A stretch of 47,327 nt of DNA from a virus, in the IMG/VR virus record IMGVR_UViG_3300043821_000003; one strand, written 5' to 3'. This document shows positions 4,111 to 47,327 of this stretch, in pieces (within the stretch, counting starts at the first letter, position 1; every line of letters begins with the position of its first letter). Under the pieces are notes generated by a model. It was not told the DNA's origin. It was given only the letters and a program-made list of their open reading frames with translations, and did no database searches. Both the position numbers and the translations under genes were made by a program.

Positions 4111-5112
4111 TTATGGATACAGTACCTTTTTATAGGTGTAGCGTTGATATTCGTAAAAATCGTTGCTCTTAGCATACACGGCTGTACTGTTAGTCCATCT
4201 TTGCAATCTGCGTAAGATTGGAGAAGCCGATGGTTTGTTATAGATCATTACATAGGGCTGACACTCACATTCTTGAATGACTTTTATTCGTTGCATATCC
4301 TGCTCAAATGTTGTATCGAAGTTTACTAAACAAAATACTTTAGCATTTCTCCAATTCCATTTAGCTTTTATTTCCTTGCAGGCATTTACATATAATCGCA
4401 AACCTTTTCTTACAGCATTTACAGATTCCATACTATCCATTGCAAAATGCGGAGTTTTAAGTTTCATAGCTGCTAATAAGTTTGCCTTTTCCTGTGTGAT
4501 TAGTCTTGCATCAAGACCTTGATTAAATTCTATGGTTGCACCGGACTTTACTAGTTGTGCTAACAAATCTCTCCATTCAGGACAAGCCAGAATGTTTGGA
4601 TCAGATAAACATATATGTCCTTGTCCATGCCAAAACTCTGACAAATCAGCAACCTTCCGGGCACATCTCCCTTCCTTCGGTGCTACATGACAAAAACCGC
4701 AACCTCTAGGGCATCCCCTTGTTAAAAAACCATAAGCGGTCTGTTGTTTTAATGGCTTTCCATATCCTGTATATTCTGGGTAAATTGAGTAATCTGGGTA
4801 GATATATTCAATTTCCGAAGATAACTCAGGGTCGAGTGATTTATCATATATTTCTCTACCATTTTGAGATTTAATGGCATATCCTGTACCACCCTTTCTT
4901 ACCTCTTTAGTATTTAAAGGTTCGGATATTTCAGGAGTATATTCTTCACTGAATACTTTTGACATATAAACAATGTCATACATATCTCTTTCGGAACTAT
5001 ACCATTCCACCAGATCCCCTTTAGATTTATGATAGGCTGATAGTTTCATTAAGCACAGGTTAGGGAAATTATGACCGTCTACATCTATCAATCCTATTTT
5101 TTTTTGTTTCAT
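4111..5112 (-). CDS. Radical-SAM protein of unknown function
   Basis: CPRGCGFC is a CxxxCxxC cluster motif. The N-terminal segment (IGLIDVDGHNFPNLCLMKLSAYHK) looks like a B12-binding/Rossmann-like domain. Confidence 0.8.
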   Translation of the reverse strand: MKQKKIGLIDVDGHNFPNLCLMKLSAYHKSKGDLVEWYSSERDMYDIVYMSKVFSEEYTPEISEPLNTKEVRKGGTGYAIKSQNGREIYDKSLDPELSSEIEYIYPDYSIYPEYTGYGKPLKQQTAYGFLTRGCPRGCGFCHVAPKEGRCARKVADLSEFWHGQGHICLSDPNILACPEWRDLLAQLVKSGATIEFNQGLDARLITQEKANLLAAMKLKTPHFAMDSMESVNAVRKGLRLYVNACKEIKAKWNWRNAKVFCLVNFDTTFEQDMQRIKVIQECECQPYVMIYNKPSASPILRRLQRWTNSTAVYAKSNDFYEYQRYTYKKVLYP

Positions 5113-5290: not shown

Positions 5291-6682
5291 TTATTCTCCT
5301 TCCAAAATCCTACAGTTACATTTTCGGTAACTGGTGCATCGTTTCTTGAACGACTTTTCCAGTGACCGGATGAAGTCTACATAATCATAAGCAATCGGTT
5401 GTTCCTTCCCTTCAAAGGTTCGTGCGATACGTCCAACACTTTGAACGATCACCGCATAGTCCTTCTGAGGGGTTGTCAGGTATAGCCTGTCCAACCGTGG
5501 GATATCAAGTCCCTCTTTTGCCAGTGAGTACGATGCAAACAAGTATCTTTTCTTACCTGTCCTTATGTCCTCAATAGCCTGCTCACGCTCTGCTTTCTTC
5601 TTCTTAGTTGTCATGCTGCCATCAATGACAGCAGCTTGTGATTTCAAGTTCGGGGGCAATCCTTCAAATAGGAATTTCAGATGATCCACTCTCTCAGATA
5701 GGATCAGGTTGTAATGCTCCCGGTTGCCTACAAGGTCATTCATGATAAGCTGATTCCGGTCTGTATGAGTCGTGAGGTAAGTAATCATTTTGCAATAGTT
5801 GATCGTTCCATCACTGTTCAGAAACGCAGAATCAAGTTTCACGCCTGTACCTTTCGGCTGTACATCTACCGTCATGACTCTGGACTTTACAGCTTCATCC
5901 GGGACTGTGTAGATAACGTGTCCCAACATAGCGTATGTAGCCTTAATCAGTCCGTCTGCCCTGTGGACGGTTGCGGACAATCCGTATTTATGTCTTGCCC
6001 TGAGTGTGTTCAGCACCTTACTGAACTGGGTTACTGCGGTAGGTGTCCCGGCTACCCGGTGACATTCATCTACGATGATGCAGTCCCATGTGTCACGGTA
6101 CTGATCCAAGTCAACCTTGCACATCGTCTGGATGGTTGCAAAGGTCATTGTTTCTCCGATATTGACTTTTCCCTCTGTGATAGTTCCCAGAAGTGACTTG
6201 TCAATATATTGTGCTGCCCTGTTCTTACTCTGGGTCAGCAGGTCTTTTGTATGGGTAAGCCAAAGTGTTTTAAGCTGCATTGCACACGCAAGGGCTATGC
6301 CAATCTGCGTCTTACCTGACCCGGCAGGTGACTGTAAGATTCCGTAATGATTGATAATCATTGCTCCTACAGCTTCCTCCTGATAGTCATACAGCGGTAC
6401 TTTCGCTCCCTTATAATCTACCTTTACCTGTTTGGCAAAGAGTTTCTTCACGCCCCCTTCCAGAAGCGGGAGGATTGATCGTAAGCACCCAAACGGGATA
6501 ATTACTGAGTCACCGTCAACCTCATACATTACAAGGGTTCTGGGTGTATCTCCCAACCAGAGATTCATTCTGGCTTTCTTCTGATATTCCGGGTTCGGTA
6601 TTTCTAAATGCTTTTTACACCAGTCAACCATGTCCGGTGAAGGGTTCGTGATTCGTAATCGTGATCCGATTTCCGTAATCAT
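5291..6682 (-). CDS. Superfamily-2 DEAD/DEAH-box DNA helicase
   Basis: Walker A QSPAGSGKT, motif II IIVDECH, and a C-terminal helicase domain (QSVGRIAR). Confidence 0.85.
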   Translation of the reverse strand: MITEIGSRLRITNPSPDMVDWCKKHLEIPNPEYQKKARMNLWLGDTPRTLVMYEVDGDSVIIPFGCLRSILPLLEGGVKKLFAKQVKVDYKGAKVPLYDYQEEAVGAMIINHYGILQSPAGSGKTQIGIALACAMQLKTLWLTHTKDLLTQSKNRAAQYIDKSLLGTITEGKVNIGETMTFATIQTMCKVDLDQYRDTWDCIIVDECHRVAGTPTAVTQFSKVLNTLRARHKYGLSATVHRADGLIKATYAMLGHVIYTVPDEAVKSRVMTVDVQPKGTGVKLDSAFLNSDGTINYCKMITYLTTHTDRNQLIMNDLVGNREHYNLILSERVDHLKFLFEGLPPNLKSQAAVIDGSMTTKKKKAEREQAIEDIRTGKKRYLFASYSLAKEGLDIPRLDRLYLTTPQKDYAVIVQSVGRIARTFEGKEQPIAYDYVDFIRSLEKSFKKRCTSYRKCNCRILEGE

Positions 6683-7089
6683 TCAAATTCCTCCACCCAC
6701 TGTCGAAAAGTCTTGTACTGTGGAAATTCCTTTTCAGTGATCGTTCCCTCACCGTAAAGCTGTCTCAACATGAGTTCATCGAAGGACACCATGTAAATGC
6801 GTCCGTCTTTCAGCTTCATAGCGAAGTAACAATGCTCATTCCCGGTCTGCTCCCACAGTGTCATTGCTCCTTCCTGATTACCTTCAATCCGGGATAACGG
6901 GAAGCGGTTGGTTTCACATTCCTTGCAGTCAATCAAGACCGGGATACCATTCTTAACCGCAATCACATCTGCGGGCTGTCCTACCTGATTCTGTGCCATG
7001 TTGTGTGCCCAGAAACCATGTAAGGCAAGCAGTTCACAAAACTCTTCTTCAAAGTGGTTTCCATTTTTCTTGTTACTATTGGTGGACAT
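6679..7089 (-). CDS. Holliday-junction resolvase (Hjc/RecU-like PD-(D/E)XK nuclease)
   Basis: 136 aa with the layout GNHFEEEF ... ADVIAV ... LIDCKE, typical of archaeal-type resolvases encoded by phages. Confidence 0.7.
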   Translation of the reverse strand: MSTNSNKKNGNHFEEEFCELLALHGFWAHNMAQNQVGQPADVIAVKNGIPVLIDCKECETNRFPLSRIEGNQEGAMTLWEQTGNEHCYFAMKLKDGRIYMVSFDELMLRQLYGEGTITEKEFPQYKTFRQWVEEFE

Positions 7090-7637
7090 TACGCTTCCAC
7101 CATTTGCACCTGACGGTGCAATTTAAGATTCTTCGGATTGAATACACAAGCCGGGGCAACCCCACCGCCGCCGTACGCATAGTTGCCGCTCAGATAACCG
7201 TCCGTAACCACGACGCGAACGTAGTCACCGCTCCCGGTGTTCGAGATATACCAAGGTGTGCAAGTCCACATCCATTCAGGGAGTAGCGGAACGTGCTTAC
7301 GATACTTTCTGTATTCATCACAACTCAGGATGAAAACTCTATCTGTGACTGTGCCGTAACGGTCATCTCCGTTATCAGCTACCATGTCAACCTCATGAGG
7401 AATAAGATTATCCTCACCCAACACAGGAAGCAGTTCATTGAGCAGCTTTCTACGCAGGCTTGACTTTGCGTAGTTGTTACAGCCGTCATCATCGAAGCTA
7501 TACTCTTCGTTGTTCCAAGCAGATGCCATGATTGCCAGAACACCGCCATCCACGTTGTTGTCAAGGACGATCCATTCAAAACCCTTGAAGCCAAAACGCT
7601 CACCTGCACTTAATACACCAATGTTTTCTTCTTTCAT
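7089..7637 (-). CDS. DGR target protein 2: compact C-type-lectin/FGE-like variable protein (the alternative start at 7652 adds 5 aa)
   Basis: The C-terminus carries VR2. It shares the landmarks FILS..E, W.CTPW, TDG and GGVAPAC with target 1. GGAGGA lies 8 nt before the ATG at 7637. Confidence 0.85.
   Translation of the reverse strand: MKEENIGVLSAGERFGFKGFEWIVLDNNVDGGVLAIMASAWNNEEYSFDDDGCNNYAKSSLRRKLLNELLPVLGEDNLIPHEVDMVADNGDDRYGTVTDRVFILSCDEYRKYRKHVPLLPEWMWTCTPWYISNTGSGDYVRVVVTDGYLSGNYAYGGGGVAPACVFNPKNLKLHRQVQMVEA
7104..7121 (-). promoter_or_regulatory. Hairpin downstream of VR2 (TTGCACC-GTCA-GGTGCAA), candidate DGR target-recognition element
   Basis: Perfect 7-bp stem with a 4-nt loop, 24 nt after the end of TR homology. 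It lies inside the ORF. Confidence 0.6.
7146..7243 (-). repeat. DGR variable repeat VR2
   Basis: It aligns without gaps to the TR. By hand count there are 18 mismatches, all at TR adenines on the coding strand. Two non-A mismatches lie just beyond it at 7244-7246. Confidence 0.9.
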
Positions 7638-7639
7638 GG

Positions 7640-7789
7640 TTAATTCCTCCATTCATAATCCTTGTGGTACTTTGTCTTGTACCATTCTTCAAACTCTTTC
7701 TTGTGTTCCGCTGACTGGAAGTAGTCTTTGACTCTCTCAATCAACTGGGAACACAAAGCACTTTCTTCCATCGTAGGAACTGCCATCAT
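7640..7789 (-). CDS. 49-aa hypothetical protein
   Basis: MMAVPTMEESALCSQLIERVKDYFQSAEHKKEFEEWYKTKYHKDYEWRN. An ATGA overlap joins it to the upstream cro-like gene. Confidence 0.45.
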   Translation of the reverse strand: MMAVPTMEESALCSQLIERVKDYFQSAEHKKEFEEWYKTKYHKDYEWRN

Positions 7790-8010
7790 CACTCCTTAAC
7801 AAGAACAGAACCTTCTTCGTACTTATCAAGAATGTCGTGAGACAATTCGATGATTGCATCTGCCTTACTGCCGCTTCGTGTCCCGGCAAGTACGGAACTC
7901 ATTTCCGTCTTATCAGTAACGATCCCTCTAAGACCTAACTGATTGATAAGCCACACCTGAGTCAACTGGTGCTTTTTGAGTCGGCTACGAATGTCCTCAC
8001 GTTCTGCCAT
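7789..8010 (-). CDS. Cro-like small HTH regulator (73 aa from MAERED)
   Basis: AAGGAGG lies 7 nt upstream of the ATG at 8010. The HTH-like segment is LTQVWLINQLGL. It is transcribed divergently from the cI-like gene. Confidence 0.6.
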   Translation of the reverse strand: MAEREDIRSRLKKHQLTQVWLINQLGLRGIVTDKTEMSSVLAGTRSGSKADAIIELSHDILDKYEEGSVLVKE

Positions 8011-8051
8011 GTCGTGTACCTCCTTTCGTTGATTTTGCTTATCAACTAAAG

Positions 8052-8080
8052 TTGACAAAATACTCTTCAAAGGTTATAAT
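8052..8080 (+). promoter_or_regulatory. Consensus sigma-A-type promoter (TTGACA-17-TATAAT) facing the cI-int operon
   Basis: TTGACA at 8052-8057 and TATAAT at 8075-8080. The -35 box overlaps the palindrome TCAAC-TAAA-GTTGA. Confidence 0.5.
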
Positions 8081-8640: not shown

Positions 8641-8667
8641 TAAGCATTGAGGAATGGAGGAAAAACC

Positions 8668-10251
8668 ATGTACGAAGAGATTAAGACTGCTTGTCTATAT
8701 CTGCGATATTCAAGCAGCAACCAAACTGAACAGTCCATAGAAGGTCAGATGCACGTCTGCCAAGACTTCTGCAAGAGACACGATATCAGAATTGTAGAGA
8801 TGTACATAGATCGTGCCACCTCTGCCAGTAAGGACATAGAGAAAAGAGTAGAGTTCCTAAAAATGATTAAGGACTCTGAGAAGGGAAACTTTGATGCAGT
8901 CATCGTCTATAAACTTGACCGCTTCGCCCGATCCCGGTATGACTCAGCTACTTACAAGTACCGTCTGAAAAGAAACGGTGTGCAGCTTGTCTCTGCCACT
9001 GAGAACATCACCCAAGACCCGGAAGGAATCATTCTTGAATCCGTTCTTGAAGGTATGGCAGAGTTCTACAGTGCGGAACTCTCACAGAAAATCAATCGTG
9101 GTATGAGGGAGTCAGCTATGAAGCATAACTCCATCGGTGGGGCTATCCCTCTGGGGTACAAGACCGTGGATAAGAAACTGATAGTTGATGAAACCACTGC
9201 TCCTATCGTCCGGGAAGCATTTCAGATGTATGCAGACGGTGAGTCTGTAGCCGAGATATGCAGAACGTTCAACAACCGTGGCTACAAGACTTCCAAGGGA
9301 ACACGTTTCGGCAAGAGCAGCTTCACTAAGATTTTCCGTAATGAGAAATACATCGGAGTCTATAAATACCATGACTACCGGGCAGAAGATGTTATCCCGC
9401 CAATCATTGATAAAGACCTGTGGGACAGAGTGCAGGTGAGAGTCGGTAAGATAAAGAAAGCCCCCGCCAGAAACAAGGCAAGGCATACTTACCTTCTGAC
9501 AGGGAAACTGTTCTGCGGACACTGTGGCAGTGCCATGAACGCTGACGGCAACTCACAGGGCTATTTGTATTATCGGTGTTACGGTAAAAAGAATCTGGAT
9601 AAACAATGTAATAAACGGAACATGGAAAAGAACCTGATTGAAAGACTGGTGGCACAGGACGCAATGTCATTCCTGACCGATGAATATATTGAGAAGATTG
9701 CTACTATTGCCTGTGATCGAAACAAGCAGGAAATTGAGAGTGATTCACCCATTCCTGTGATCCGTGACAGAATCAGGCAGGTTGACGTGTCTCTGAACAA
9801 TTTGCTGAAAGCTATCGAAACCGGGTCTGCCCCGGATATGCTTGTAAAGCGTATGGGAGAACTTGAAACTGAGAAGAAGGACATGGAAGTGCAGCTTAAA
9901 AAGGAAATGGCACACCAAGTCTATATTGATAAAGAGCAGGTAATCTTCTGGTTAGAGAAGTTCCGTGAAGGGGATATCAATGACGAAGAGTTCTGTCAGA
10001 CCGTGATTGATCTGTTCGTAAATTCTGTGACTGTATGGGATGAACCGGACGATAAGTTCAGGATCACCATTGCCTACAATCTTACCTCTATACCGCAAAA
10101 AACCTACCGCCTGTCGAAAGACGGTAGGTTATCGGATTACGCTTCCAATACTCCACCATTGAGTGCAAATCCAATGATATCAGGAAGCATTATGATTCAT
10201 ACCTTTACAGTCACCGTACACCCGCAGAAACGGGGAAGGAAAACCCTGTGA
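8668..10251 (+). CDS. int: Large serine recombinase (integrase)
   Basis: Resolvase catalytic domain (YLRYSSSNQ, VYKLDRFARS), recombinase domain, Cys zinc ribbon (CGHCGS...YYRCYGK) and coiled coil. GGAGGA precedes the ATG at 8668. Confidence 0.9.
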   Translation: MYEEIKTACLYLRYSSSNQTEQSIEGQMHVCQDFCKRHDIRIVEMYIDRATSASKDIEKRVEFLKMIKDSEKGNFDAVIVYKLDRFARSRYDSATYKYRLKRNGVQLVSATENITQDPEGIILESVLEGMAEFYSAELSQKINRGMRESAMKHNSIGGAIPLGYKTVDKKLIVDETTAPIVREAFQMYADGESVAEICRTFNNRGYKTSKGTRFGKSSFTKIFRNEKYIGVYKYHDYRAEDVIPPIIDKDLWDRVQVRVGKIKKAPARNKARHTYLLTGKLFCGHCGSAMNADGNSQGYLYYRCYGKKNLDKQCNKRNMEKNLIERLVAQDAMSFLTDEYIEKIATIACDRNKQEIESDSPIPVIRDRIRQVDVSLNNLLKAIETGSAPDMLVKRMGELETEKKDMEVQLKKEMAHQVYIDKEQVIFWLEKFREGDINDEEFCQTVIDLFVNSVTVWDEPDDKFRITIAYNLTSIPQKTYRLSKDGRLSDYASNTPPLSANPMISGSIMIHTFTVTVHPQKRGRKTL

Positions 10252-11720: not shown

Positions 11721-12155
11721 TTACTGATCTGTGTTATCCGCAGAGTCAGATTTCTTTTTAAGTACCTCAATCGCAGATGTAATTGCCGGGGGAATATTGA
11801 TCCCCATAAGACCTGCATTTTCCACGATGGAAATAGTCTCATTCGCAATAAAAGCAATCACCACTGCATCCCTGATAAAGTTCGTCCCGGTCACAAGGTC
11901 AAGGCGTGTAGCCACCAGAACCATCAGAAGAGTAATGCACTTACGGCACAGTCCCTTCCAACCTGCTCTGGACTCCAAAGCACCGTTTTCTGTCTTACCG
12001 GAATTATGGAACACACCTGCCACAAGCAGACCTGTCACATAATCAATAGCCATGAAAATTACCAGTGTTACCAGTGCGGCATCCCAACCGCCAAACAGAG
12101 AAGCAATCACGCTTCCTACAACTCCAATAGCTGTGCAAATTCCATCCTTCATCAT
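11721..12155 (-). CDS. Holin (phage_holin_4_1 / toxin-secretion holin family)
   Basis: Multiple TM segments with DYVTG ... ANE.ISI.EN ... P. AGGAGG precedes the ATG at 12155 (ORF track start is 12176). Confidence 0.8.
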   Translation of the reverse strand: MMKDGICTAIGVVGSVIASLFGGWDAALVTLVIFMAIDYVTGLLVAGVFHNSGKTENGALESRAGWKGLCRKCITLLMVLVATRLDLVTGTNFIRDAVVIAFIANETISIVENAGLMGINIPPAITSAIEVLKKKSDSADNTDQ

Positions 12156-12159
12156 CTCT

Positions 12160-12315
12160 TTAGTCCTCCTGTTCATCGTAGTCCTCCCCGGTAATCTCTT
12201 TGAAATTCTCCGGGCTGATCCATCCCTTTTCTACTGCATCCCTAACTCTCTTTTCCTTCCAGAGTCCATTGTCATAGAAATTCTTCACCATCTCAAACTT
12301 ACTCTTCTTCGCCAT
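12160..12315 (-). CDS. xkdX: XkdX-family small phage protein (51 aa)
   Basis: MAKKSKFEMVKNFYDNGLWKEKRVRDAVEKGWISPENFKEITGEDYDEQED matches the XkdX pattern (YY..GLW....V...V.KG.IT..EY.EITG). Below the ORF-track cutoff. Confidence 0.7.
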   Translation of the reverse strand: MAKKSKFEMVKNFYDNGLWKEKRVRDAVEKGWISPENFKEITGEDYDEQED

Positions 12316-12478
12316 GATCCTGTACCTCCTGTTCGTCATCTTCCTGCTCCATCTCGATATCTGCCATCATAGCCAGATATTCAATGTCACTGTTTGCCTT
12401 TGCGATCTGTGCCTGCATTGCAGCGTTCTTCTGACGCTCTTTTACAAGCTGTTCTCTTGCACTGATAAATCCAAACAT
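12299..12478 (-). CDS. Hypothetical coiled-coil protein (59 aa from MFGF)
   Basis: GGAGGG lies 7 nt upstream of the ATG at 12478. It has an acidic C-terminus and overlaps the RT 3' end. Confidence 0.5.
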   Translation of the reverse strand: MFGFISAREQLVKERQKNAAMQAQIAKANSDIEYLAMMADIEMEQEDDEQEVQDHGEEE

Positions 12479-13575
12479 TTGCTTTCCCTCCATAAATTCT
12501 TATAATATTGATCCATACAAATAATGAGATTGTGGCAATTTCTCCTTGCCCTCCTACCCGGAGATTTCCTTTTCTTGCTACTCTCATTACCTACATGGGC
12601 TTTCCAACTTTCATAACACCTGTCAACCTCTTCCTTAGTCATGTACCCTTGCTTTGCCCTGTTTACCAACTTCCGCAGTTTCCTACGTTCGTGTGATAAC
12701 TTCTCAGGCAGTAGTGTCATGACTACCTTTCCGGTCTTTGTCAACCGGAAGCGGAAACCCAGAAACTTGATACCCTGAGTCACCTTGAAAAGCTGTGTTT
12801 TCTTCGGACTCAGTTTCAAACCTCTTGAAGATATCCAAGCATCAATCTTTATCAAACACTCCTGCAAATAAGCCTTGTCCTCATGGATGATAATGAAATC
12901 ATCGTTGTACCGGACATAGTGCTTAATGTGAAGTTGCTCTTTTATAAAATGGTCGAAGTCATCTAAGACTGCTAACTGTATAAGCTGTGTCGTTTCTGAA
13001 CCAAGACCCATGCCTACTTCTGGATCATCACCTTGATTGAAGCTGTCAATGATCCGCTTGATTTCTCCGTTCACCCATTCGTCATTGACCCTCTTTGTTA
13101 CCGCTGAGTAAGCCAGTTCATGAGAGGTGCTACCGAAGAAATTCTTCAAGTCTGCTTTGAGTACCCATCCTTCTGTACCGTGTTTCCGGTAATACTTCTG
13201 CAAGTGACAGATCAGCCTTTTCCTTGCGAACTCTGTTCCTCTTCCATCCTGACAAGCACAGTTATCATAGATAAATGATTTTGTCATGGTGTCGTAAAAG
13301 TAGTTGTCGCATAGGCTTCTCTGAAATACCCTGTCCTTGATTCTTGTACTTACAATGTCTCTTTCTTTTGGCTCATACACTTTGAACTGTGTATAAGCAT
13401 CTAACTTATATGTACCATTCTCCACGCTCTCCTTTAGCTTATGAACATTAACCAAACCATTCTTTACATACCCGGCTACACTGTCTTTCCACATGACGTT
13501 GTTCTTGCAATGCTGCATAGCCCGGTACAGATTATCAAAGTCACAGACTTCATCTCTCACTTCGGATTCCATCAT
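12442..13575 (-). CDS. DGR reverse transcriptase
   Basis: RT motifs include LGSETTQ (the DGR-type [ILV]GxxxSQ) and YVRYNDDFIIIH (YxDD). It is located next to the TR and avd. Confidence 0.9.
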   Translation of the reverse strand: MMESEVRDEVCDFDNLYRAMQHCKNNVMWKDSVAGYVKNGLVNVHKLKESVENGTYKLDAYTQFKVYEPKERDIVSTRIKDRVFQRSLCDNYFYDTMTKSFIYDNCACQDGRGTEFARKRLICHLQKYYRKHGTEGWVLKADLKNFFGSTSHELAYSAVTKRVNDEWVNGEIKRIIDSFNQGDDPEVGMGLGSETTQLIQLAVLDDFDHFIKEQLHIKHYVRYNDDFIIIHEDKAYLQECLIKIDAWISSRGLKLSPKKTQLFKVTQGIKFLGFRFRLTKTGKVVMTLLPEKLSHERRKLRKLVNRAKQGYMTKEEVDRCYESWKAHVGNESSKKRKSPGRRARRNCHNLIICMDQYYKNLWRESKCLDLSVQENSL

Positions 13576-13846
13576 GTATATTTCTCCCGTAAATCATTGG
13601 TTGCCGTTTATAGTGATACTGCCGTAAGGACGGCAATCACATCAGCACTCTGTTTTCGCCCTACTATATTCAGGTCAGGATGACGATTCCTTGTGTGAGT
13701 GCATTGATTTCAGCCTGTGCCTACTTTATTACTAGCGTTTCTCACAATCCGGGGCAACCCCATTGCTGTTGTTCGCATTGTTGTTGTTCAGATTACCGTC
13801 CGTATTCACGTTGCGAACGTTGTTACCGTTCCCGGTGTTCGGGGTA
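13576..13846 (-). ncRNA. DGR template RNA (TR plus the 168-nt TR-RT spacer)
   Basis: Non-coding on the sense strand. The spacer contains the hairpin UGCCGU-CCUU-ACGGCA (13620-13635). The RNA extent is inferred, not measured. Confidence 0.55.
13744..13846 (-). repeat. DGR template repeat (TR)
   Basis: In the target frame it reads TPNTGNGNNVRNVNTDGNLNNNNANNSNGVAPDC, with 10 AAC and 4 AAT codons. It is the adenine-containing parent of both VR1 and VR2. Confidence 0.9.
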
Positions 13847-13880
13847 AACACATATCTTACAATCGTCAACCTTATATCAT

Positions 13881-14300
13881 TTACTTGTATCTATTTTCAT
13901 CAGACCTCTTCCAGTTCCGAAGAAGATTCTGGACGCTGACTACAAGTCCTGTCCAGTGATCCATCTTAGAACCTTCGATTCCGAAAGTACGGTAAGCAAT
14001 ATCCATCATGGTAAGCAAGGAATATGTCTGTGCCAAAGCCTGAACTTGATATCCTCTCCGTAATTCCCAGTCGGCTTTCCAATGTTCAGACTCAGGATTC
14101 ACATACACTGAATTTGCCATATTGATAAGTCGGCTGATCTCTACCGCAGCATCTACGATCTTCGCCGTGATGCACCAACGGTATCTCTTCGGGAAGCAAT
14201 TCTCATTACTGCAAATATGGATGGTATGTGTAGCCAACTCATTTGCTTTTGTAATTACTTCCAGTTTGGGTGTACCTCTCTTTGACTTCGGTACTGACAT
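13881..14300 (-). CDS. avd: Avd (accessory variability determinant, four-helix-bundle protein)
   Basis: 139 aa from MSVPKSKRG with RBS GGAGTGAGG. Has the FPK..R...T.KI motif and a basic C-terminus, and lies between the target and the TR. Confidence 0.8.
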   Translation of the reverse strand: MSVPKSKRGTPKLEVITKANELATHTIHICSNENCFPKRYRWCITAKIVDAAVEISRLINMANSVYVNPESEHWKADWELRRGYQVQALAQTYSLLTMMDIAYRTFGIEGSKMDHWTGLVVSVQNLLRNWKRSDENRYK

Positions 14301-14317
14301 TTTCCTCACTCCTTCCC

Positions 14318-14335
14318 CCACCCCTAACGGGGTGG
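14318..14335 (-). promoter_or_regulatory. Hairpin downstream of VR1 (CCACCCC-GTTA-GGGGTGG), candidate DGR target-recognition element
   Basis: Perfect 7-bp GC-rich stem with a 4-nt loop, 22 nt after the end of TR homology. Intergenic. Confidence 0.6.
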
Positions 14336-14345
14336 ATTTCTGATC

Positions 14346-15512
14346 TTAGATCACATTACAAGCCGGGGCAACCCCACCGCTGCTGAGCGCACTGCCGTAG
14401 CCCAGAATACCGTCCGTATACACGCAGCGAACGTAGCTACCGTTCCCGGTGTCCGGGGTACGAAGCCACCACCACTGCGGGCTACCTCCACGGTATTTGA
14501 TACGGTTCTTGTCTGCTCCTGCGTTCGCACTTGTGTAATCAGAATAGTCAGAGTAGAACGGATAAGGCTCACCCTCTGTCACATTACTTACCTCATTACC
14601 CGCAAATACTTCACGTCTGGAAAGCAGGAAAAACTTATCCTTTGTAGTATCAGAACCACCGCCATCAGTAACCGTATTACGACAAGTTACTTTTGTGGTC
14701 TTTCCGATAACTGCCAGAAAGTCTGCATCCAAACCATTCATGAAACCTGCTGTACTTGCGTTCCAAGATGGAGGTCTGTCAAACTTTGTCTGAGGTGTCC
14801 ATACAGACCCGGCAGCTTTATCACTGTTAAGGTACTGTCTCATTGCAGATTCAACCCAGTTATTAGAACCGTATCTAATTCTGTGAGAATGGTTCATGTT
14901 GGTAGTCTTACCATCCGCAGTACCAAGGTTTGTACCACCTGTACCTTCGGTAACGCCTACAGTTTCAATAGCAGCGGTGTCAGTTCTACTCTTATAGGTG
15001 GAAACCTTTGTAGTAGAAGCCTGAGTATTCCAGTTCCAAGGGAAGGTAATCTGACCGCCTGCGGGTACTTCCTTTGTAAGAGTGAACTGGTAAGTCTTGC
15101 CACCGCCATAAGCAGTGTCATAGCCTGCAAGCAGTGTAAAATTATAAGTTCCTGCCGCAAGTGCAGTCTCACAATAAAACAGTGCTTCTGGTGCATCATA
15201 CTGAGTACCCTGTAAACAGTCATGAAGCTGTAAGGTCATGCTGTGAGTGAACTGCTTGTCTGCCGGGGTATCAATGTCAAAACCGATGATATCCCACACC
15301 AGAGTTGTGCTACCTCTCTGGCAGGTCAACTGATCTCCTATAGCAAATACCTTGCTTGCCAGTCCCTTACGGACAAGTGCCTGCACATCACTCCAAGATG
15401 TAGGTTTCAGGCTACCACCCTGTCCGGTTGCAATCGCAGCAAGGAACTGGTTCATAATGTCCATCTTCTCTGCGAACGTATCGTCAGAGAGAAAACCAAA
15501 CTGATTGCTCAT
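14346..15512 (-). CDS. DGR target protein 1: tail-fibre / receptor-binding-type protein with a C-terminal lectin-like variable domain
   Basis: 388 aa ending ...FFLLSRRE...WWWLRTPDTGNGSYVRCVYTDGILGYGSALSSGGVAPACNVI. It is the last gene of the tail module, immediately upstream of avd. Confidence 0.9.
   Translation of the reverse strand: MSNQFGFLSDDTFAEKMDIMNQFLAAIATGQGGSLKPTSWSDVQALVRKGLASKVFAIGDQLTCQRGSTTLVWDIIGFDIDTPADKQFTHSMTLQLHDCLQGTQYDAPEALFYCETALAAGTYNFTLLAGYDTAYGGGKTYQFTLTKEVPAGGQITFPWNWNTQASTTKVSTYKSRTDTAAIETVGVTEGTGGTNLGTADGKTTNMNHSHRIRYGSNNWVESAMRQYLNSDKAAGSVWTPQTKFDRPPSWNASTAGFMNGLDADFLAVIGKTTKVTCRNTVTDGGGSDTTKDKFFLLSRREVFAGNEVSNVTEGEPYPFYSDYSDYTSANAGADKNRIKYRGGSPQWWWLRTPDTGNGSYVRCVYTDGILGYGSALSSGGVAPACNVI
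14358..14460 (-). repeat. DGR variable repeat VR1
   Basis: By hand count there are 18 mismatches to the TR in the 98-nt core, all at TR adenines on the coding strand. Confidence 0.9.
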
Positions 15513-15526
15513 TGTCTTATCCTCCT

Positions 15527-16405
15527 TTATCCTGTAACAACTTCGTCATACTCAAATACGGGCTTACCACCAATCACCTTGATTGCACCCTGATAGGTTT
15601 TCCCGGTATCATCGTTGACGATCATCATAGTAGCTGCTGCTTTCAATGCAGAATCGGTAGCAGTGTTGCAATCTGTGATTGCCTTTGAAGTGTCCTGCTG
15701 ACGTTTTGTCTCAGCCTGTACCCTGCTGTTTTCAGCAGTAACACGGGACTTCTCAGCCTGTACCCTTGCAGACTCAGCGGACACCCTAGACTGCTCCGTC
15801 TGAACTCTTCCACTCTCAGCCTGTACCCTTGCAGACTCAGCGGACACCCTAGACTGCTCCGTCTGAACTCTTCCACTCTCAGCCTGTACCCTTGCAGACT
15901 CAGCGGACACCCTAGACTGCTCCGTCTGAACTCTTCCACTCTCAGCCTGCACACGCTTTGCTTCGGCATCCTTGATAGCCTGCACATCTGCAATTAACTG
16001 AATCAAGATTCCGTAATCGTTATCTTTTTCAATCTCAGAGTCATCTGGTGCAGCCGCTTCCTGAACTTCCAACTCAAAGAGCGTTGTACTCAGTACCGTT
16101 TTTGTTGCTGTGATGATCGAAATATCACACTTCACAGTACCGTCAAGCTGCAACATCCAATAGGTAAGCGGTACAGTCACCGTTCCATCAGAGTTGACAG
16201 TTCCCTCAAAGGTCTTTGCAGTTTCGTCCTCACGTCTTGCATTGATGACTGCGGTAGATGCAGAATCCACATTGATACGCTCACCGCTATCCAGAAGAGT
16301 TACTTTCAGATAACGAGACTGCTTATCGTACTGCTTTGCCACGATTGCAGCAAAACGGTTAAGCTGAGATACATCCACCTCAATCTCTTTAATGATCGTT
16401 GCCAT
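15527..16405 (-). CDS. BppU-N-like baseplate/tail-fibre protein with a coiled-coil repeat stalk
   Basis: The N-terminus (MATIIKEIEVDVSQLNRF...KQYDKQSRYLKVTLLD) resembles the BppU N-domain. The centre holds 21-aa tandem repeats. Confidence 0.6.
   Translation of the reverse strand: MATIIKEIEVDVSQLNRFAAIVAKQYDKQSRYLKVTLLDSGERINVDSASTAVINARREDETAKTFEGTVNSDGTVTVPLTYWMLQLDGTVKCDISIITATKTVLSTTLFELEVQEAAAPDDSEIEKDNDYGILIQLIADVQAIKDAEAKRVQAESGRVQTEQSRVSAESARVQAESGRVQTEQSRVSAESARVQAESGRVQTEQSRVSAESARVQAEKSRVTAENSRVQAETKRQQDTSKAITDCNTATDSALKAAATMMIVNDDTGKTYQGAIKVIGGKPVFEYDEVVTG
15752..15940 (-). repeat. Three perfect 63-bp tandem repeats (21-aa unit AESGRVQTEQSRVSAESARVQ), with degenerate flanking copies
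   Basis: Units start at 15752, 15815 and 15878 and are identical when read by eye. They are in frame. Confidence 0.95.
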
Positions 16406-17902: not shown

Positions 17903-20073
17903 TCCTCATTCACACCTTCCATTTGAAAAATGTTATCTTCATCTACTACCGGAACATACTTGCTTGCCCTTCGTGGAATTTTCATAACGCTTACAATGCT
18001 TGCATTGTCGGTTTTCTCAACTGCTCTCCATTTCACACCCATTCCATACTCTGTAGAGATGAAATCGAAGTAACCACCATCAGCCGCAGCACCCACGGAC
18101 AATCTGTCCATTGCTTCTACGGCATTGATATGCAGCTTGTTATACTGGATGAAAGCAACCTCAGAACCGTCCTGCAAGAATCCCATCCTCTCATTGTCAA
18201 TATTAATCGAATACTGCTGCTTCTCTCCGTTGACCTTCTTACCAATCTCCAAACCATCCTCACTGAAACCAAAGTAGGTTTGAAGCTGCTCACGGTAACT
18301 ATTCGCCTCGTTACCTTGTTCAGTAACACGATCAGTCAGAGAGTTTACCGACATATTAAAGCCCTTCGATGTTTCTTCCAGTTTGGTGCTATACTCAGTC
18401 GTAATCTCTTGATGTACGCTGTCGGTATAATCTTTTGCCTGAGCCAGTCGATCATCAATCTTTGCATTGGTAGTATCAGTAACGGTCTTGACACTCTCAG
18501 CAACCTCAGTACGGATCGTTCCACCTGTATTTGCGATCAGAGTTTTTGTCTCTTCGGTTGTACTATAATCTGTCAACTTTCCGTCAACGGTTTCTTCCAT
18601 TTCCGTTGTGACACTTTGCTTATACTCAGATGATAACTTCTCAGCGGTAACACACTCTGCATCCAGATATTCAGTAGAAATCTTATAAGCTGCCAACATA
18701 TTGTAGATAGCATTACCATCTTTACTGAATCCGTATTTCCATACAGGGTTTCCATCATTCCAACTCTTTGTCCAAGCAAAACCGTTTGCCTTGAAGGTGT
18801 AAATGATGTTACTGCTTTCAAGAGTCTCACCGTCACAGAAGTAATAAACCTGTGTTCCATCATCCTGCGAAATCGTTACGATGTTCAGACCCAAGCTGTT
18901 GCTCAAAAGTCTGTTCAATTCAAGCTGTGCCTGTTCTTTCGCAGTCATAGCCTTATCCAGATTTTCTCTCAGCTTTTCCAGAATGGTTGCTTGCTGTTTG
19001 GTAAGCCCACCACTCTGAGAGTATTTCTGCTTCTGGGTTGTCTCGCCCTTACCTGCAATACTGGTACTGAGATTCATCCCGAACGTCACATTCGTAATGA
19101 TGGTGTCATGCACCTCACCTTTTGCATCCTCATAATGAATCATGTCCATAGGGTAGATGTATGGTGCAGATTTAATAGTTGCTGTGTATGGTCTATAGGA
19201 AAATCCCTTCAAAGAAACATACAGAGTATCAAGTACCACCTGTACATTATCCTGTAGCAGACCATTACTGGATAAATCCAAACAATAATCGTCCGTCCCG
19301 GCAATGTACTCTGTGTTTGCAGCATCCTTAAAGTAAATACCTGTAATGGCTACATCATTTTCCTGCATATCACTGTTATATCTTTCGGAAGGGCTGATTG
19401 TAAGATCAGTCTGCTCATACCATTTCAATTCCAGATTGCCGTCATAATTCATGAAAGCACACGTTCCGGTCAGTGCCGCACACCACTGTAGCAATGTTCG
19501 GTAGGTCAAGTCCTGACCTTCTGGGTACGCTATAATCTGGTAATCTTTGTTTGGCAACCGGGTAATATCCGTTGCCATTGTCACACCACAAATAGTGCAA
19601 ATCTTATCCAGTAGATCAGCTACCGTCATAGGGAATGACAGTTTACTTGTATCTACGGTCTTATCGAAAAGAATCATTCTGTCTAGTGCTGAGATCGTAA
19701 TAGTGGACAAAGCCCGTGGCGGTTCATCAATCGTAAAGTACCCACATGGAATCCAGTGAATCACTGCATTTTCCCATCGGTGTGCATCCCATTTCTTGAT
19801 ACCGATTTTCACAAATACCTCTGCACCTTCAAAGACGGTATTATCATATTTACCGTCATCGTTTTTCAATTTGAGTGTAAGTTCCGCAGCTACCGCAGAA
19901 CCTACCTCAATTTTTGAGTTCGACACACTGTAGCGGTCTATACTCAAACTTCCCTGAACAATCTCATTCTCAGCAACCGAAAAAGACTCATTCACGCCAT
20001 TTACTGTAATGTCAGCAACCTGTATGTAGTTTTTATTGAAGAGGTTCTTAACCTCCTGTGATACGTTATACAT
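17899..20073 (-). CDS. Tail-associated lysin/Tal-like minor structural protein (prophage tail endopeptidase-type N-terminus)
   Basis: 724 aa, positioned after the Dit-like gene. The N-terminal region resembles the phage minor structural protein N-terminal domain. Confidence 0.65.
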   Translation of the reverse strand: MYNVSQEVKNLFNKNYIQVADITVNGVNESFSVAENEIVQGSLSIDRYSVSNSKIEVGSAVAAELTLKLKNDDGKYDNTVFEGAEVFVKIGIKKWDAHRWENAVIHWIPCGYFTIDEPPRALSTITISALDRMILFDKTVDTSKLSFPMTVADLLDKICTICGVTMATDITRLPNKDYQIIAYPEGQDLTYRTLLQWCAALTGTCAFMNYDGNLELKWYEQTDLTISPSERYNSDMQENDVAITGIYFKDAANTEYIAGTDDYCLDLSSNGLLQDNVQVVLDTLYVSLKGFSYRPYTATIKSAPYIYPMDMIHYEDAKGEVHDTIITNVTFGMNLSTSIAGKGETTQKQKYSQSGGLTKQQATILEKLRENLDKAMTAKEQAQLELNRLLSNSLGLNIVTISQDDGTQVYYFCDGETLESSNIIYTFKANGFAWTKSWNDGNPVWKYGFSKDGNAIYNMLAAYKISTEYLDAECVTAEKLSSEYKQSVTTEMEETVDGKLTDYSTTEETKTLIANTGGTIRTEVAESVKTVTDTTNAKIDDRLAQAKDYTDSVHQEITTEYSTKLEETSKGFNMSVNSLTDRVTEQGNEANSYREQLQTYFGFSEDGLEIGKKVNGEKQQYSINIDNERMGFLQDGSEVAFIQYNKLHINAVEAMDRLSVGAAADGGYFDFISTEYGMGVKWRAVEKTDNASIVSVMKIPRRASKYVPVVDEDNIFQMEGVNEE

Positions 20074-45496: not shown

Positions 45497-46060
45497 TTAT
45501 TCCAACTCTATGTGAATCCCTTTCATATTTTTTTTTACGGGATTTTTCTTCATGACATTACAGCAATTCGCTCCTACTTTGAAAGGTGCTTCAAAGAAAA
45601 ATTTCCATTTACTGTAGTCATATCTATGTCCATATCTCTGTACCTTTTCACTGTCAGGACTGAAACATTGTGTTGCAGCATATCCGTCAGGTTTATTTCT
45701 GGCTTCATATATTTTTCCTGAAACCTCTTTGGATATAAACGGATAACCAAACTCCGTAATAACCTGCTTGAAGTTTTTCTTCGGTTTGAGCCATACCACA
45801 TTACCGAAAGTTTTGACAAACTCTCTAATTTCAGGGTATTCCAGACCTGTATCTACAAACACCGCCGTCACATTCGGGTACATCTGACGTACCAAGTCCA
45901 ACAGAACTGTACTGTCTTTTCCACCGGAAAAGCTGACATATACGCCATCCTCTCCGTAATACTCAACCCACTGACGTATTCTGTATTTAGTCATCTGAAT
46001 TTTAGCTTTCAGAGGAAGTGACTGCATTTGCCATAAATCACTGATAACGTGTTTTCCCAT
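45497..46060 (-). CDS. PAPS-reductase/PP-loop ATP-pyrophosphatase family protein, N-terminal segment
   Basis: PP-loop motif VSFSGGKDS. The ORF ends 7 codons after an A9 run, in mid-domain (…CCNVMKKNPVKK). Confidence 0.75.
   Translation of the reverse strand: MGKHVISDLWQMQSLPLKAKIQMTKYRIRQWVEYYGEDGVYVSFSGGKDSTVLLDLVRQMYPNVTAVFVDTGLEYPEIREFVKTFGNVVWLKPKKNFKQVITEFGYPFISKEVSGKIYEARNKPDGYAATQCFSPDSEKVQRYGHRYDYSKWKFFFEAPFKVGANCCNVMKKNPVKKNMKGIHIELE
45528..45536 (-). promoter_or_regulatory. A9 homopolymer (T9 on the plus strand): the junction between the two PAPS-reductase-like frames; candidate slippage site or indel error
   Basis: A -1 shift on A AAA AAA joins ...PVKKK to YERDSHRVGITAQMASES... 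Confidence 0.6.
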
Positions 46061-46061
46061 A

Positions 46062-47111
46062 TCAATCCTTCCTCTTCTTCGGAGTGAAACGGTACTCAGG
46101 CTTTTCAGTCTCAGTCATGTACTTATCAAGCACACCGTCCTTCTCCATTGCTTCTGTATCAAAATCCTGTTTCTTCTTCATGCTGACGGTAGTGACAAAA
46201 TCATAGCTGCCACCTGTGATCGTAACAGTCTTATCACCCGGCTTGAACTGGCTCATACTTGCTTCTTTAATCAGTTCTTTCAGCTTTTCCAGACGCTTTT
46301 CATCGTCAGCTACAGTTGCATTGACCTCTTCGATGTGAAGCATAAGCCCTTCGGCTTCCTTCACCATTGCGTCCAGATCGGAGTCAGGGGAGAGGTTGTT
46401 ATCTCTCAGCACTTTCAGAATGTCAGCGTCAGCCTTTTCATCATACTTCGGAGATACACCGCCCTCTACATGAGTTTTCCACCATTTTTTAACCTGCGTG
46501 ATCGTTTTCTTCATGTTCGGATATCTCTCAGACACCTTAAACGGACGAACGAAAGTATTCTCAGCCTTACACTCATAAGCTGCCGGGTCATCGTAGTCCT
46601 TCTCACCCAGAACCGAACACACCATGATTACGTCATCAACTCCAAGCAGGTAAGCGTAAAGTGCAGCCTGTAAAGCATAATACTCAGGTACATCTTCCAC
46701 CCAGTCCTCAGACCTCTTCGTGGTTTTCATTTCCAGTACCGTTTGCGGTTTACCTTCCTTGTCCACGAGCAGATAATCCCACATACCACCGAAGATCGGT
46801 GTATCACGGAAGAAATCTCCCCACGTTTTCTTGAAGTAGTCCTCACCGTACACATCCGTAGGTGTAATCAGATTGCTCATGAAGTATGCAGTTTTCATGT
46901 ACTCTGCCTGCTTCGGCTCAATCGTCTTACCTGCGATAGTGTAGATCGTGTCCTCAAACGGTTCTTCGTAGGTTCTGGTGATTGCACACCACGCATTGAA
47001 CGGGCTTGTCCACTTATTCAGACCCATGATTGCTGCAAATCGTGTACCTGTGATCTTCTTCGGTTTCGCAGGTGGTGTAATCGTGATGGTTTTATCGTCA
47101 TTCCACTTCAT
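46062..47111 (-). CDS. YqaJ/lambda-exonuclease-like recombination exonuclease (PD-(D/E)XK)
   Basis: 349 aa from MKWNDDKT with RBS AAGGAGG. Motifs GTRFAAIMG, LEMKTTK, EYYALQAALYAYLL. Partner of the ERF protein. Confidence 0.75.
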   Translation of the reverse strand: MKWNDDKTITITPPAKPKKITGTRFAAIMGLNKWTSPFNAWCAITRTYEEPFEDTIYTIAGKTIEPKQAEYMKTAYFMSNLITPTDVYGEDYFKKTWGDFFRDTPIFGGMWDYLLVDKEGKPQTVLEMKTTKRSEDWVEDVPEYYALQAALYAYLLGVDDVIMVCSVLGEKDYDDPAAYECKAENTFVRPFKVSERYPNMKKTITQVKKWWKTHVEGGVSPKYDEKADADILKVLRDNNLSPDSDLDAMVKEAEGLMLHIEEVNATVADDEKRLEKLKELIKEASMSQFKPGDKTVTITGGSYDFVTTVSMKKKQDFDTEAMEKDGVLDKYMTETEKPEYRFTPKKRKD

Positions 47112-47327
47112 AGAACTGTCCTCCTTCTTAAATGTACTGCTTCCACAGCTTTGCAAAAGTGCTTCTGCCATCCCCGCCCTTCTTATTCAGACGGGTATAT
47201 CCTGCACGTTTCATATTCGCTCTTGCGATCATTCTCTTAAATTTCCTCATTACTTCTGCCCTCCATGTAACGGGGTTCGCTTTCCCCGATTGTTCTACAG
47301 TCAATCAGTTCCTTAATTTGTCCATCC
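46636..47327. repeat. Wrap-around copy (same sequence as 1-692)
   Basis: See the 1-692 entry. This is consistent with a circular or circularly permuted assembly, or with a terminal redundancy. Confidence 0.95.

Follow-up and report, generated by a model that had tools for sequence, protein, structure and literature searches.

Evidence for a diversity-generating retroelement with one template and two target genes in an uncultured Coprococcus-type temperate phage

No known source is richer in diversity-generating retroelements (DGRs) than gut phages. In the viral sequence of IMG/VR record IMGVR_UViG_3300043821_000003 (47,327 nt; here called the window, meaning the whole stretch of DNA that was analyzed), a reverse transcriptase (RT) gene and an adenine-rich repeat lie at the junction of the tail and lysis genes. 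This locus raises the question of whether its parts constitute a complete DGR, with a template repeat (TR) and matching variable repeats (VRs), and, if so, which genes it diversifies and whether it is still at work. The evidence presented below indicates that it is very probably a canonical phage DGR that is currently or recently active and in which one template serves two targets. About 30 codons, mostly AAC or AAT, are randomized on the fixed scaffold T.G.G..VR.V.TDG.L....A....GVAPAC in two proteins, one encoded by the last gene of the tail module (T1) and the other by a gene of the early operon (T2).

Organization of the element and adenine-specific differences

The original prediction described a complete DGR at the tail-lysis junction, with the minus-strand order target, hairpin, avd (accessory variability determinant), TR, a 168-nt spacer and RT. 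This order was borne out, with all open reading frames (ORFs) found exactly where they had been placed. The position in the genome is also correct, as T1 is preceded by BppU_N-like and DUF859 genes, and XkdX, holin and endolysin genes follow. Essentially right throughout, the prediction omitted only the second variable repeat (VR2) and its gene (7652..7089), which lie outside the region it described. The features of the element, all on the minus strand, are as follows.

15512..14346, minus strand: T1, target gene; ORF of 388 amino acids, last gene of the tail module
14460..14358, minus strand: VR1; 103 nt, located 9 nt upstream of the T1 stop codon
14358..14375, minus strand: candidate initiation of mutagenic homing (IMH) sequence of VR1, GGGGTTGCCCCGGCTTGT; a GC-rich segment, then a fixed C
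14335..14318, minus strand: hairpin/cruciform CCACCCC-GTTA-GGGGTGG; 22 nt after VR1, between the T1 stop codon and the avd ribosome-binding site
14300..13881, minus strand: avd; 139 amino acids from ATG, with AAGGAG 8 nt upstream
13846..13744, minus strand: TR; 103 nt with 34 A, noncoding, between avd and RT
13744..13761, minus strand: candidate IMH*, GGGGTTGCCCCGGATTGT; one base (A13748) different from the IMH, with no hairpin after it
13743..13576, minus strand: spacer between TR and RT; 168 nt
13740..13579, minus strand: putative RT-2-like RNA of the TR-RT spacer; Rfam RF03077 match, below the gathering score
13575..12442, minus strand: RT, DGR reverse transcriptase; 377 amino acids, with LGSETTQ and YNDD
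7652..7089, minus strand: T2, second target gene; 187 amino acids, with a single DUF6273 domain
7243..7145, minus strand: VR2; 19 differences from TR, followed by an 18-residue C-terminal tail
7121..7104, minus strand: hairpin TTGCACC-GTCA-GGTGCAA; 24 nt after VR2, within the T2 coding sequence

BLAST of positions 13700 to 13900, which carry the TR, against the whole window identified exactly two further copies of the repeat, at 14460..14358 and 7251..7145, both on the minus strand; no third VR was found by this search. Neither TR/VR pair contains an indel. VR1 aligned to the TR without gaps over 103 nt, and each of its 19 mismatches fell on a TR adenine (11 A>G, 6 A>T and 2 A>C). Within the 98-nt core, which holds 33 TR adenines, VR1 and VR2 each had 19 mismatches, again all at A. 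The absence of non-adenine differences between the TR and VR1 in the core had been noted, and it extends to both repeats, with 38 of 38 differences at TR adenines. The chance that 19 mismatches would all fall on the 33 adenines among 98 positions is 9e−12 for each VR. Homology of VR2 begins 5 nt later than that of VR1 (TR 13841), and non-adenine differences at 13847, 13844 and 13842 lie just outside this boundary. The predicted figure of about 33 adenines in the core stands, whereas the 18 differences first counted for VR1 become 19 with the addition of the position that separates CCGGATTGT from CCGGCTTGT.

Read in the target frame, the TR translates as T P N T G N G N N V R N V N T D G N L N N N N A N N S N G V A P D C. 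The asparagine-rich character noted earlier, with 10 AAC and 4 AAT codons, was reproduced by counting, and the motifs TDG and GVAP are indeed kept in the TR, VR1 and VR2. Two minor points concern the rest of the cassette: an alternative GTG start codon for avd at 14321 would fall within the hairpin, and a promoter scan of the cassette gave results no better than those for shuffled sequence.

A fixed base and a hairpin mark the variable repeats

The last position that varies among all VRs corresponds to TR 13763. Next come GGGGTTGCCCCGG and a base that is A in TRs and C in VRs. In the BPP-1 phage, the IMH marks the 3′ limit of transfer (PMC5758913), and the original prediction proposed that a difference at this edge separates the IMH of the VRs from the IMH* of the TR. 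The comparison with related loci strengthened this proposal, as A13748 was present in 13/13 related TRs and C in 16/16 VRs aligned to their own TR; all 19 close copies of VR2 likewise read GGCTTGT. At the remaining TR-A positions the VRs show two to four different bases, A>C being the rarest change; the C after GGGGTTGCCCCGG is therefore best read as a fixed difference and not as a product of mutagenesis.

Both VRs are followed, 22 to 24 nt downstream, by a hairpin with a 7-bp stem and a 4-nt GTYA loop. An inverted repeat downstream of the IMH is present in about a third of DGRs. The VR1 hairpin was predicted to fold as DNA with −10.5 kcal/mol (z, −3.7), compared with a z of −0.3 for the flank of the TR, and no hairpin was found downstream of any of the TR copies in the window and its relatives. 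Compensatory changes are seen in both hairpins. One relative (L013) carries CCGCCCC-GTCA-GGGGCGG at the VR1 hairpin, and the VR2 hairpin takes the forms TTGCGCC/GGCGCAA and TGTGCC/GGCACA in relatives, despite the altered amino acids that result. A function of the hairpin after T1 as a transcriptional terminator was rejected, as no T-run follows on the coding strand. In BPP-1, a structure-dependent hairpin or cruciform downstream of the IMH is required, and together with the IMH it suffices to define a target (PMC3240598).

Turnover of the variable repeats in related phages

IMG/VR searches identified 15 loci with a related RT, of which 12 had both a readable TR and a readable VR1 (RTs 79 to 99% identical, 11/12 at 95 to 99%). 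Each relative's VR1 differs from its own TR at 11 to 20 positions, nearly all of them TR adenines (for example, 15/15, 14/14, 18/18, 17/17 and 20/20). VR1 was distinct in 13/13 genomes (this one and the 12 relatives), as were all 16 VRs compared. Nine of the 13 related TRs that were read share one sequence, whereas their VRs differ. Where TR variants exist, they differ at non-adenine positions, and in every locus the VR bears the bases of its own TR at those positions. Such tracking of the TR by the VR is what continued TR-to-VR copying would produce.

Variation in T2 was assessed with 86 related loci and with a protein search that returned 1,484 homologues, the 120 best of which are 81 to 94% identical. 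Among 35 aligned members of these 120, variation was almost entirely confined to residues 136 to 164. In the 19 closest T2 loci, per-column diversity was ∼0.22 to 0.24 in VR2 and 0.01 to 0.05 elsewhere (∼10 times), and 15 distinct VR2 sequences were present. Taken with the VR1 data, these comparisons indicate that both targets are diversified in nature and that the element is active in the population. For this individual genome, activity is inferred from differences between separate assemblies.

One relative (L001; IMGVR_UViG_3300010283_000028) departs from the pattern. Its TR (9727-9833) has 22 adenines in place of the usual 33 to 34, and 8 of the differences between it and its own VR1 are at non-adenine positions (G in the TR and A in the VR at 6 of them). 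This TR looks as if it had itself been adenine mutagenized, through self-homing or VR-to-TR conversion, and an assembly chimera is also possible.

The VRs of this genome could instead be the record of past mutagenesis by an element that is now dead here. Current activity is beyond the reach of a single assembly, and decay is known in the group: the L001 TR lacks 11 to 12 adenines, there are groups of T2 paralogues with a fixed VR-like segment and no hairpin (described below), and seven loci (L033-L035, L037, L038, L041 and one more) share two VR2 variants that are one base apart. However, all parts are intact in the window, including a full-length RT with YNDD, avd, an A-rich TR, both IMHs and both hairpins. 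Moreover, an abandoned VR would be expected to gather non-adenine mismatches, yet the core of neither VR has any, and phages with RTs as similar as 98 to 99% each have a different VR. A fossil element is therefore considered quite unlikely, and a currently or recently active DGR remains the preferred reading.

The two target proteins

The C-terminal half of T1 is a DUF6273 domain (Pfam, 6e−27; residues 208 to 387) that ends in VR1, and the protein matches phrog_19280 (4e−64). T1 is probably a receptor-binding or adhesion protein. Its center (14826-15213) drops out of megablast alignments with relatives that are 93 to 96% identical on both flanks; because of this, the N-terminal or middle domain of T1 appears to be mosaic independently of the DGR. 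Similarity to related loci also breaks around the adjacent BppU_N-like tail gene (15527..16405). This gene contains a perfect 63-nt tandem repeat (15751-15949; 3.2 copies, 100% identity) that encodes AESARVQAESGRVQTEQSRVS units, and the number of copies may vary between relatives.

T2 consists of a DUF6273 domain alone (phrog_9958, 1e−43), and it has neither a signal peptide nor an attachment domain. In most relatives the gene is called from Met6 (182 amino acids). T2 is the second gene of an early operon with the minus-strand order cro-like gene (8070..7789), T2, RecU-like resolvase, helicase, radical SAM protein and DNA polymerase, and its stop codon overlaps the start codon of the translationally coupled RecU-like gene (TAATG). 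The protein is 29 to 35% identical to small proteins of phages nd4, nd12, Lelie and Toutatis. The nd4 match is the 234-amino-acid nd4_tgt2, described as a C-type-lectin-only DGR target (PMC10743442), and the Lelie and Toutatis counterparts have been reported as "small DGR target proteins" (PMC11792537). By sequence, nd4_tgt2 and the small targets in Lelie and Toutatis are thus orthologues of T2. In all four phages the small-target gene lies at least 10 kb from the RT, among non-structural genes (for example, methyltransferase, replication initiator and polymerase subunit genes). DGR targets that are non-adjacent within one prophage are a known feature (PMC5758913).

T2 paralogues 62 to 70% identical in amino acid sequence occur at prophage loci (L046-L092). 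Within groups of these the segment equivalent to VR2 is fixed, and L057-L074, for instance, have ∼20 identical copies; one group has a segment with no resemblance to the TR, and the downstream hairpin is absent in these paralogues. Because of the fixed segment and the missing hairpin, the T2 family appears to occur also in forms that are not, or are no longer, diversified.

The existence of such apparently non-diversified paralogues, and the location of T2 in another functional module 5.3 kb from the RT, would fit a view of VR2 and T2 as a paralogous remnant that shares ancestry with VR1 and is not a real second target. Several lines of evidence contradict this. All 19 differences between VR2 and the TR are at adenines; VR2 has an IMH and a hairpin of its own, the latter with compensatory changes; among close relatives it is hypervariable within an otherwise conserved gene; at non-adenine positions it matches whichever TR variant its genome carries; and the orthologous small proteins are published DGR targets (PMC10743442, PMC11792537). 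A remnant is very unlikely, and T2 is taken here as a genuine second target of the DGR.

The position of T2 in the early operon, next to a cro-like gene, together with the location of its orthologues outside tail modules, brings up a further idea: T2 might be an early-expressed, non-structural, hypervariable binding protein and not a receptor-binding protein of the virion. Such a protein might, for example, act against defense proteins, superinfection determinants or other variable host factors, either within the cell or once released. This proposal is doubtful and is put forward tentatively; published work on these small targets leaves their function open (PMC10743442, PMC11792537).

The reverse transcriptase

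The LGSETTQ and YNDD motifs that had been read from the sequence are present in the 377-amino-acid RT. Profile searches of the RT and Avd ORFs, which the original prediction had suggested as a check, matched the RT to Pfam RVT_1 (4e−20) and phrog_1423 (2e−87) and Avd to phrog_3206. The best PDB match of the RT was 8ub7 chain A (9e−26; residues 8 to 328), identified as the BPP-1 RT (bRT) by its 100% match to the phage brt gene; in this alignment LGSETTQ lies opposite IGSLTSQ and YNDD opposite YMDD. Other structural classes matched less well, with a group II intron maturase at 8e−10 and retron and Cas-associated RTs at 8e−10 or worse, in the palm region only. The nearest RTs in the phage collection are at most 59% identical, and the top annotated matches are those of nd12, nd4, Roseburia phage Shimadzu, Faecalibacterium phages Toutatis and Lelie and a Bordetella phage. 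DGRs have been described or annotated in these phages, or they are relatives of BPP-1. The RT is thus assigned, from its sequence matches, to the DGR clade.

No DGR RT family was among the matches returned by an NCBIfam search of the RT; those found were group_II_RT_mat (105 bits against a cutoff of 300), Drt3a (63 against 200) and retron St85 (43 against 235). An Rfam scan of positions 12000 to 16000 detected no group II intron or retron RNA. An assignment of the RT to a retron, group II intron or defense system, with coincidental repeats, is extremely improbable: although a group II intron RT/maturase is the best NCBIfam match, with Drt3a and a retron weaker, all of these miss their cutoffs by a wide margin, the best structural match is bRT over its full length, no intron or retron RNA was detected in the scanned region, and such an assignment leaves the adenine-only spectrum unexplained. 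Classification of the RT as a retron or group II intron RT was rejected on the same NCBIfam cutoffs.

Avd and the RNA between the template repeat and the reverse transcriptase gene

The Avd ORF matched phrog_3206, "Avd protein of DGR" (6e−17), and aligned over its full length with the annotated Avd of Roseburia phage Shimadzu (23% identity; E value, 1e−9). A PDB sequence search with Avd gave no match.

The spacer (13740..13579) matched the full Rfam RT-2 RNA model (RF03077) with 34.5 bits (E value, 1e−5 to 1e−6), short of the gathering score of 40, and two internal stem-loops of the model are missing. It is best called a diverged, shortened relative of RT-2 RNA. Matches to the same model were found in the equivalent spacers of L013 (33.7 bits), MT835664 (L106; 39.5 bits) and Roseburia phage Shimadzu (144.9 bits), and an alignment of the four spacers contains some compensatory pairs. 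In Shimadzu, the RT-2 RNA (L107, 2179-2402; LR596903, about 19715-19938) sits between Avd/TR and the annotated DGR RT, immediately upstream of the latter.

The motifs RT-1 to RT-19 were described near RT genes by Weinberg et al., with only RT-10 assigned to a DGR, that of BPP-1; the authors speculated that further RT motifs would prove to be DGR linked (PMC5737381). Because of the 144.9-bit match between Avd/TR and RT in Shimadzu, the orphan Rfam motif RT-2 can be assigned, on this sequence evidence, to DGRs of Lachnospiraceae phages as their TR-RT spacer. The noncoding segment that lies downstream of the TR in BPP-1 is bound by Avd and supplies the priming site for cDNA synthesis (PMC6182149), and the spacer examined here is presumed by analogy to be the part of the DGR RNA that binds Avd and serves in priming.

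Points that weigh against the proposed reading, and a working mechanism

Some of the observations weigh against the reading of this locus as an active, two-target DGR of the usual kind. The RT motif is GxxxTQ, with Thr for the Ser of the usual form GxxxSQ. The curated NCBIfam DivGenRetAVD and Pfam bAvd models match Avd weakly, at sub-threshold scores of 15.2 and 13.6 bits, respectively, and the RT-2 score of the spacer is also below its gathering score. An AlphaFold2 model of T2, built with 36 close homologues, had a mean predicted local distance difference test score of 37 and did not confirm a C-type lectin fold; PDB sequence searches with T1 and with a T2 profile returned no match. A PAC ending is shared by the non-diversified T2 paralogues, and the C of the IMH could therefore owe its persistence to selection for the Ala codon of GVAPAC. 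Finally, the evidence for activity comes from comparison of separate assemblies.

With these points considered, a working mechanism can be outlined for the DGR, in which the RNA intermediate, its priming, the role of the hairpin and the ligands of T1 and T2 are inferred largely by analogy with BPP-1. An RNA made up of the TR and the structured RT-2-like spacer would be bound by a complex of RT and Avd. The complex would prime cDNA synthesis from the spacer and misincorporate opposite template adenines, and the cDNA would then replace the homologous VR. The recipient site might be recognized by the GC-rich IMH (GGGGTTGCCCCGG, then C) and the hairpin 22 to 24 nt downstream. The TR, with its IMH* (A for C) and no hairpin, would be spared.

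The phage genome, its host and its integration

Positions 1 to 692 of the window are identical to positions 46636 to 47327, and this 692-bp terminal overlap shows that the window is a complete genome, assembled as a circle of 46,635 bp. The GC content is 44.5%, and almost all genes are on the minus strand. A cI-like repressor gene and a serine integrase gene (8647..10251) are divergent from the early operon. The same element is carried by a metagenome-assembled genome (MAG) of Coprococcus sp. (L016), with an RT that is 98% identical. The phage is temperate and uncultured, with a gut Coprococcus-like bacterium, a Gram-positive anaerobe, as host. When the cassette and 24 kb of structural genes were searched by megablast against the deposited phage collection, nothing matched, and so the phage does not appear to be a described one.

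Alignments to integrated relatives (the Coprococcus MAG and L004, L009 and L012) end at about window position 10145-10153, which is ∼100 nt inside the 3′ end of the serine integrase ORF and ∼100 nt beyond the endolysin stop codon. The attP core is probably located there. Integration at this site would alter the C terminus of the integrase and, given where the similarity ends, would place the cassette near one end of the prophage and T2 near the other, ∼40 kb apart in the prophage state compared with 5.3 kb in the circular form.

One of these relatives (L012; IMGVR_UViG_3300045988_175579) has retained T2 and the replication genes, along with the VR1-bearing 3′ part of T1, avd, TR, RT and the lysis genes. 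It lacks the equivalent of window positions 14828-40592, the entire structural module, and is either a deletion derivative or a misassembly. MT835664, which has a related DGR (RT 59% identical), contains a 3′ fragment of transfer-messenger RNA (5401-5524) at the end of the phage contig, which suggests integration at ssrA. In the window, the replication/recombination module encodes a radical SAM protein (4111-5112; phrog_9298, 8e−87) and a PAPS-reductase/QueC-like protein (45497-46060; phrog_424, 3e−30), which together may have a DNA-modification function.

Comparison with known diversity-generating retroelements

The prototype DGR of BPP-1 (mtd-avd-TR-brt) has the same order of target, hairpin, avd, TR, spacer and RT as the element described here. 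The two RTs are homologous over their full length, the TR-VR differences are adenine-only in both elements, and in both an inverted repeat that has a 4-nt loop and is absent from the TR lies after a GC-rich IMH (PMC3240598, PMC5758913). However, the RT is only ∼29% identical to BPP-1-type RTs, the IMH and IMH* are one base apart here, and there are two targets instead of one. The targets contain DUF6273 and have no detectable sequence similarity to Mtd, the spacer would belong to the RT-2 family and not to RT-10, and the host is a Gram-positive gut anaerobe.

The DGR of Roseburia phage Shimadzu (LR596903) is closer in setting. The host family, Lachnospiraceae, is shared, and the cassette occupies the same site, with a tail fiber target, Avd, TR and RT-2 RNA, and RT, followed by lysis genes. 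The proteins are nevertheless distant (RT, 33% identity; Avd, 23%), the targets are barely similar, and the RT-2-like RNA of the window is without the two internal stem-loops. A tblastn search with T2 against Shimadzu found no homologue.

Phages nd4, nd12, Lelie and Toutatis carry two-target DGRs in which the second target, like T2, is a small DUF6273-only protein with the VR at its 3′ end. They differ in their first targets, which in nd4 and nd12 are tentaclins with an N-terminal VR and immunoglobulin (Ig) domains and in Lelie a large target protein. Their RTs are 33 to 36% identical to that of the window, and their hosts are different Clostridia. Further, nd4 and nd12 are myoviruses, and T2 of the window is set directly between a cro-like and a RecU-like gene.

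As a DGR, the element is ordinary, and DGRs with two targets, one of them a small DUF6273 protein, have already been published for phages of gut Firmicutes. It is nevertheless a clean and complete example, and its carrier, an uncultured temperate phage of the Coprococcus type, has no close relative among the deposited phages that were searched. About a hundred natural relatives document VR turnover, TR-VR covariation, the one-base IMH/IMH* difference and hairpin compensation in both targets. Two small points go further than the original prediction. The first is the proposed assignment of RT-2 as the TR-RT spacer of Lachnospiraceae-phage DGRs, next to that of RT-10 in BPP-1. The second is that the small second target, in this phage as in nd4, nd12, Lelie and Toutatis, is consistently located among early or replication genes, which raises the question of whether a DGR can diversify a protein that is not part of the virion.

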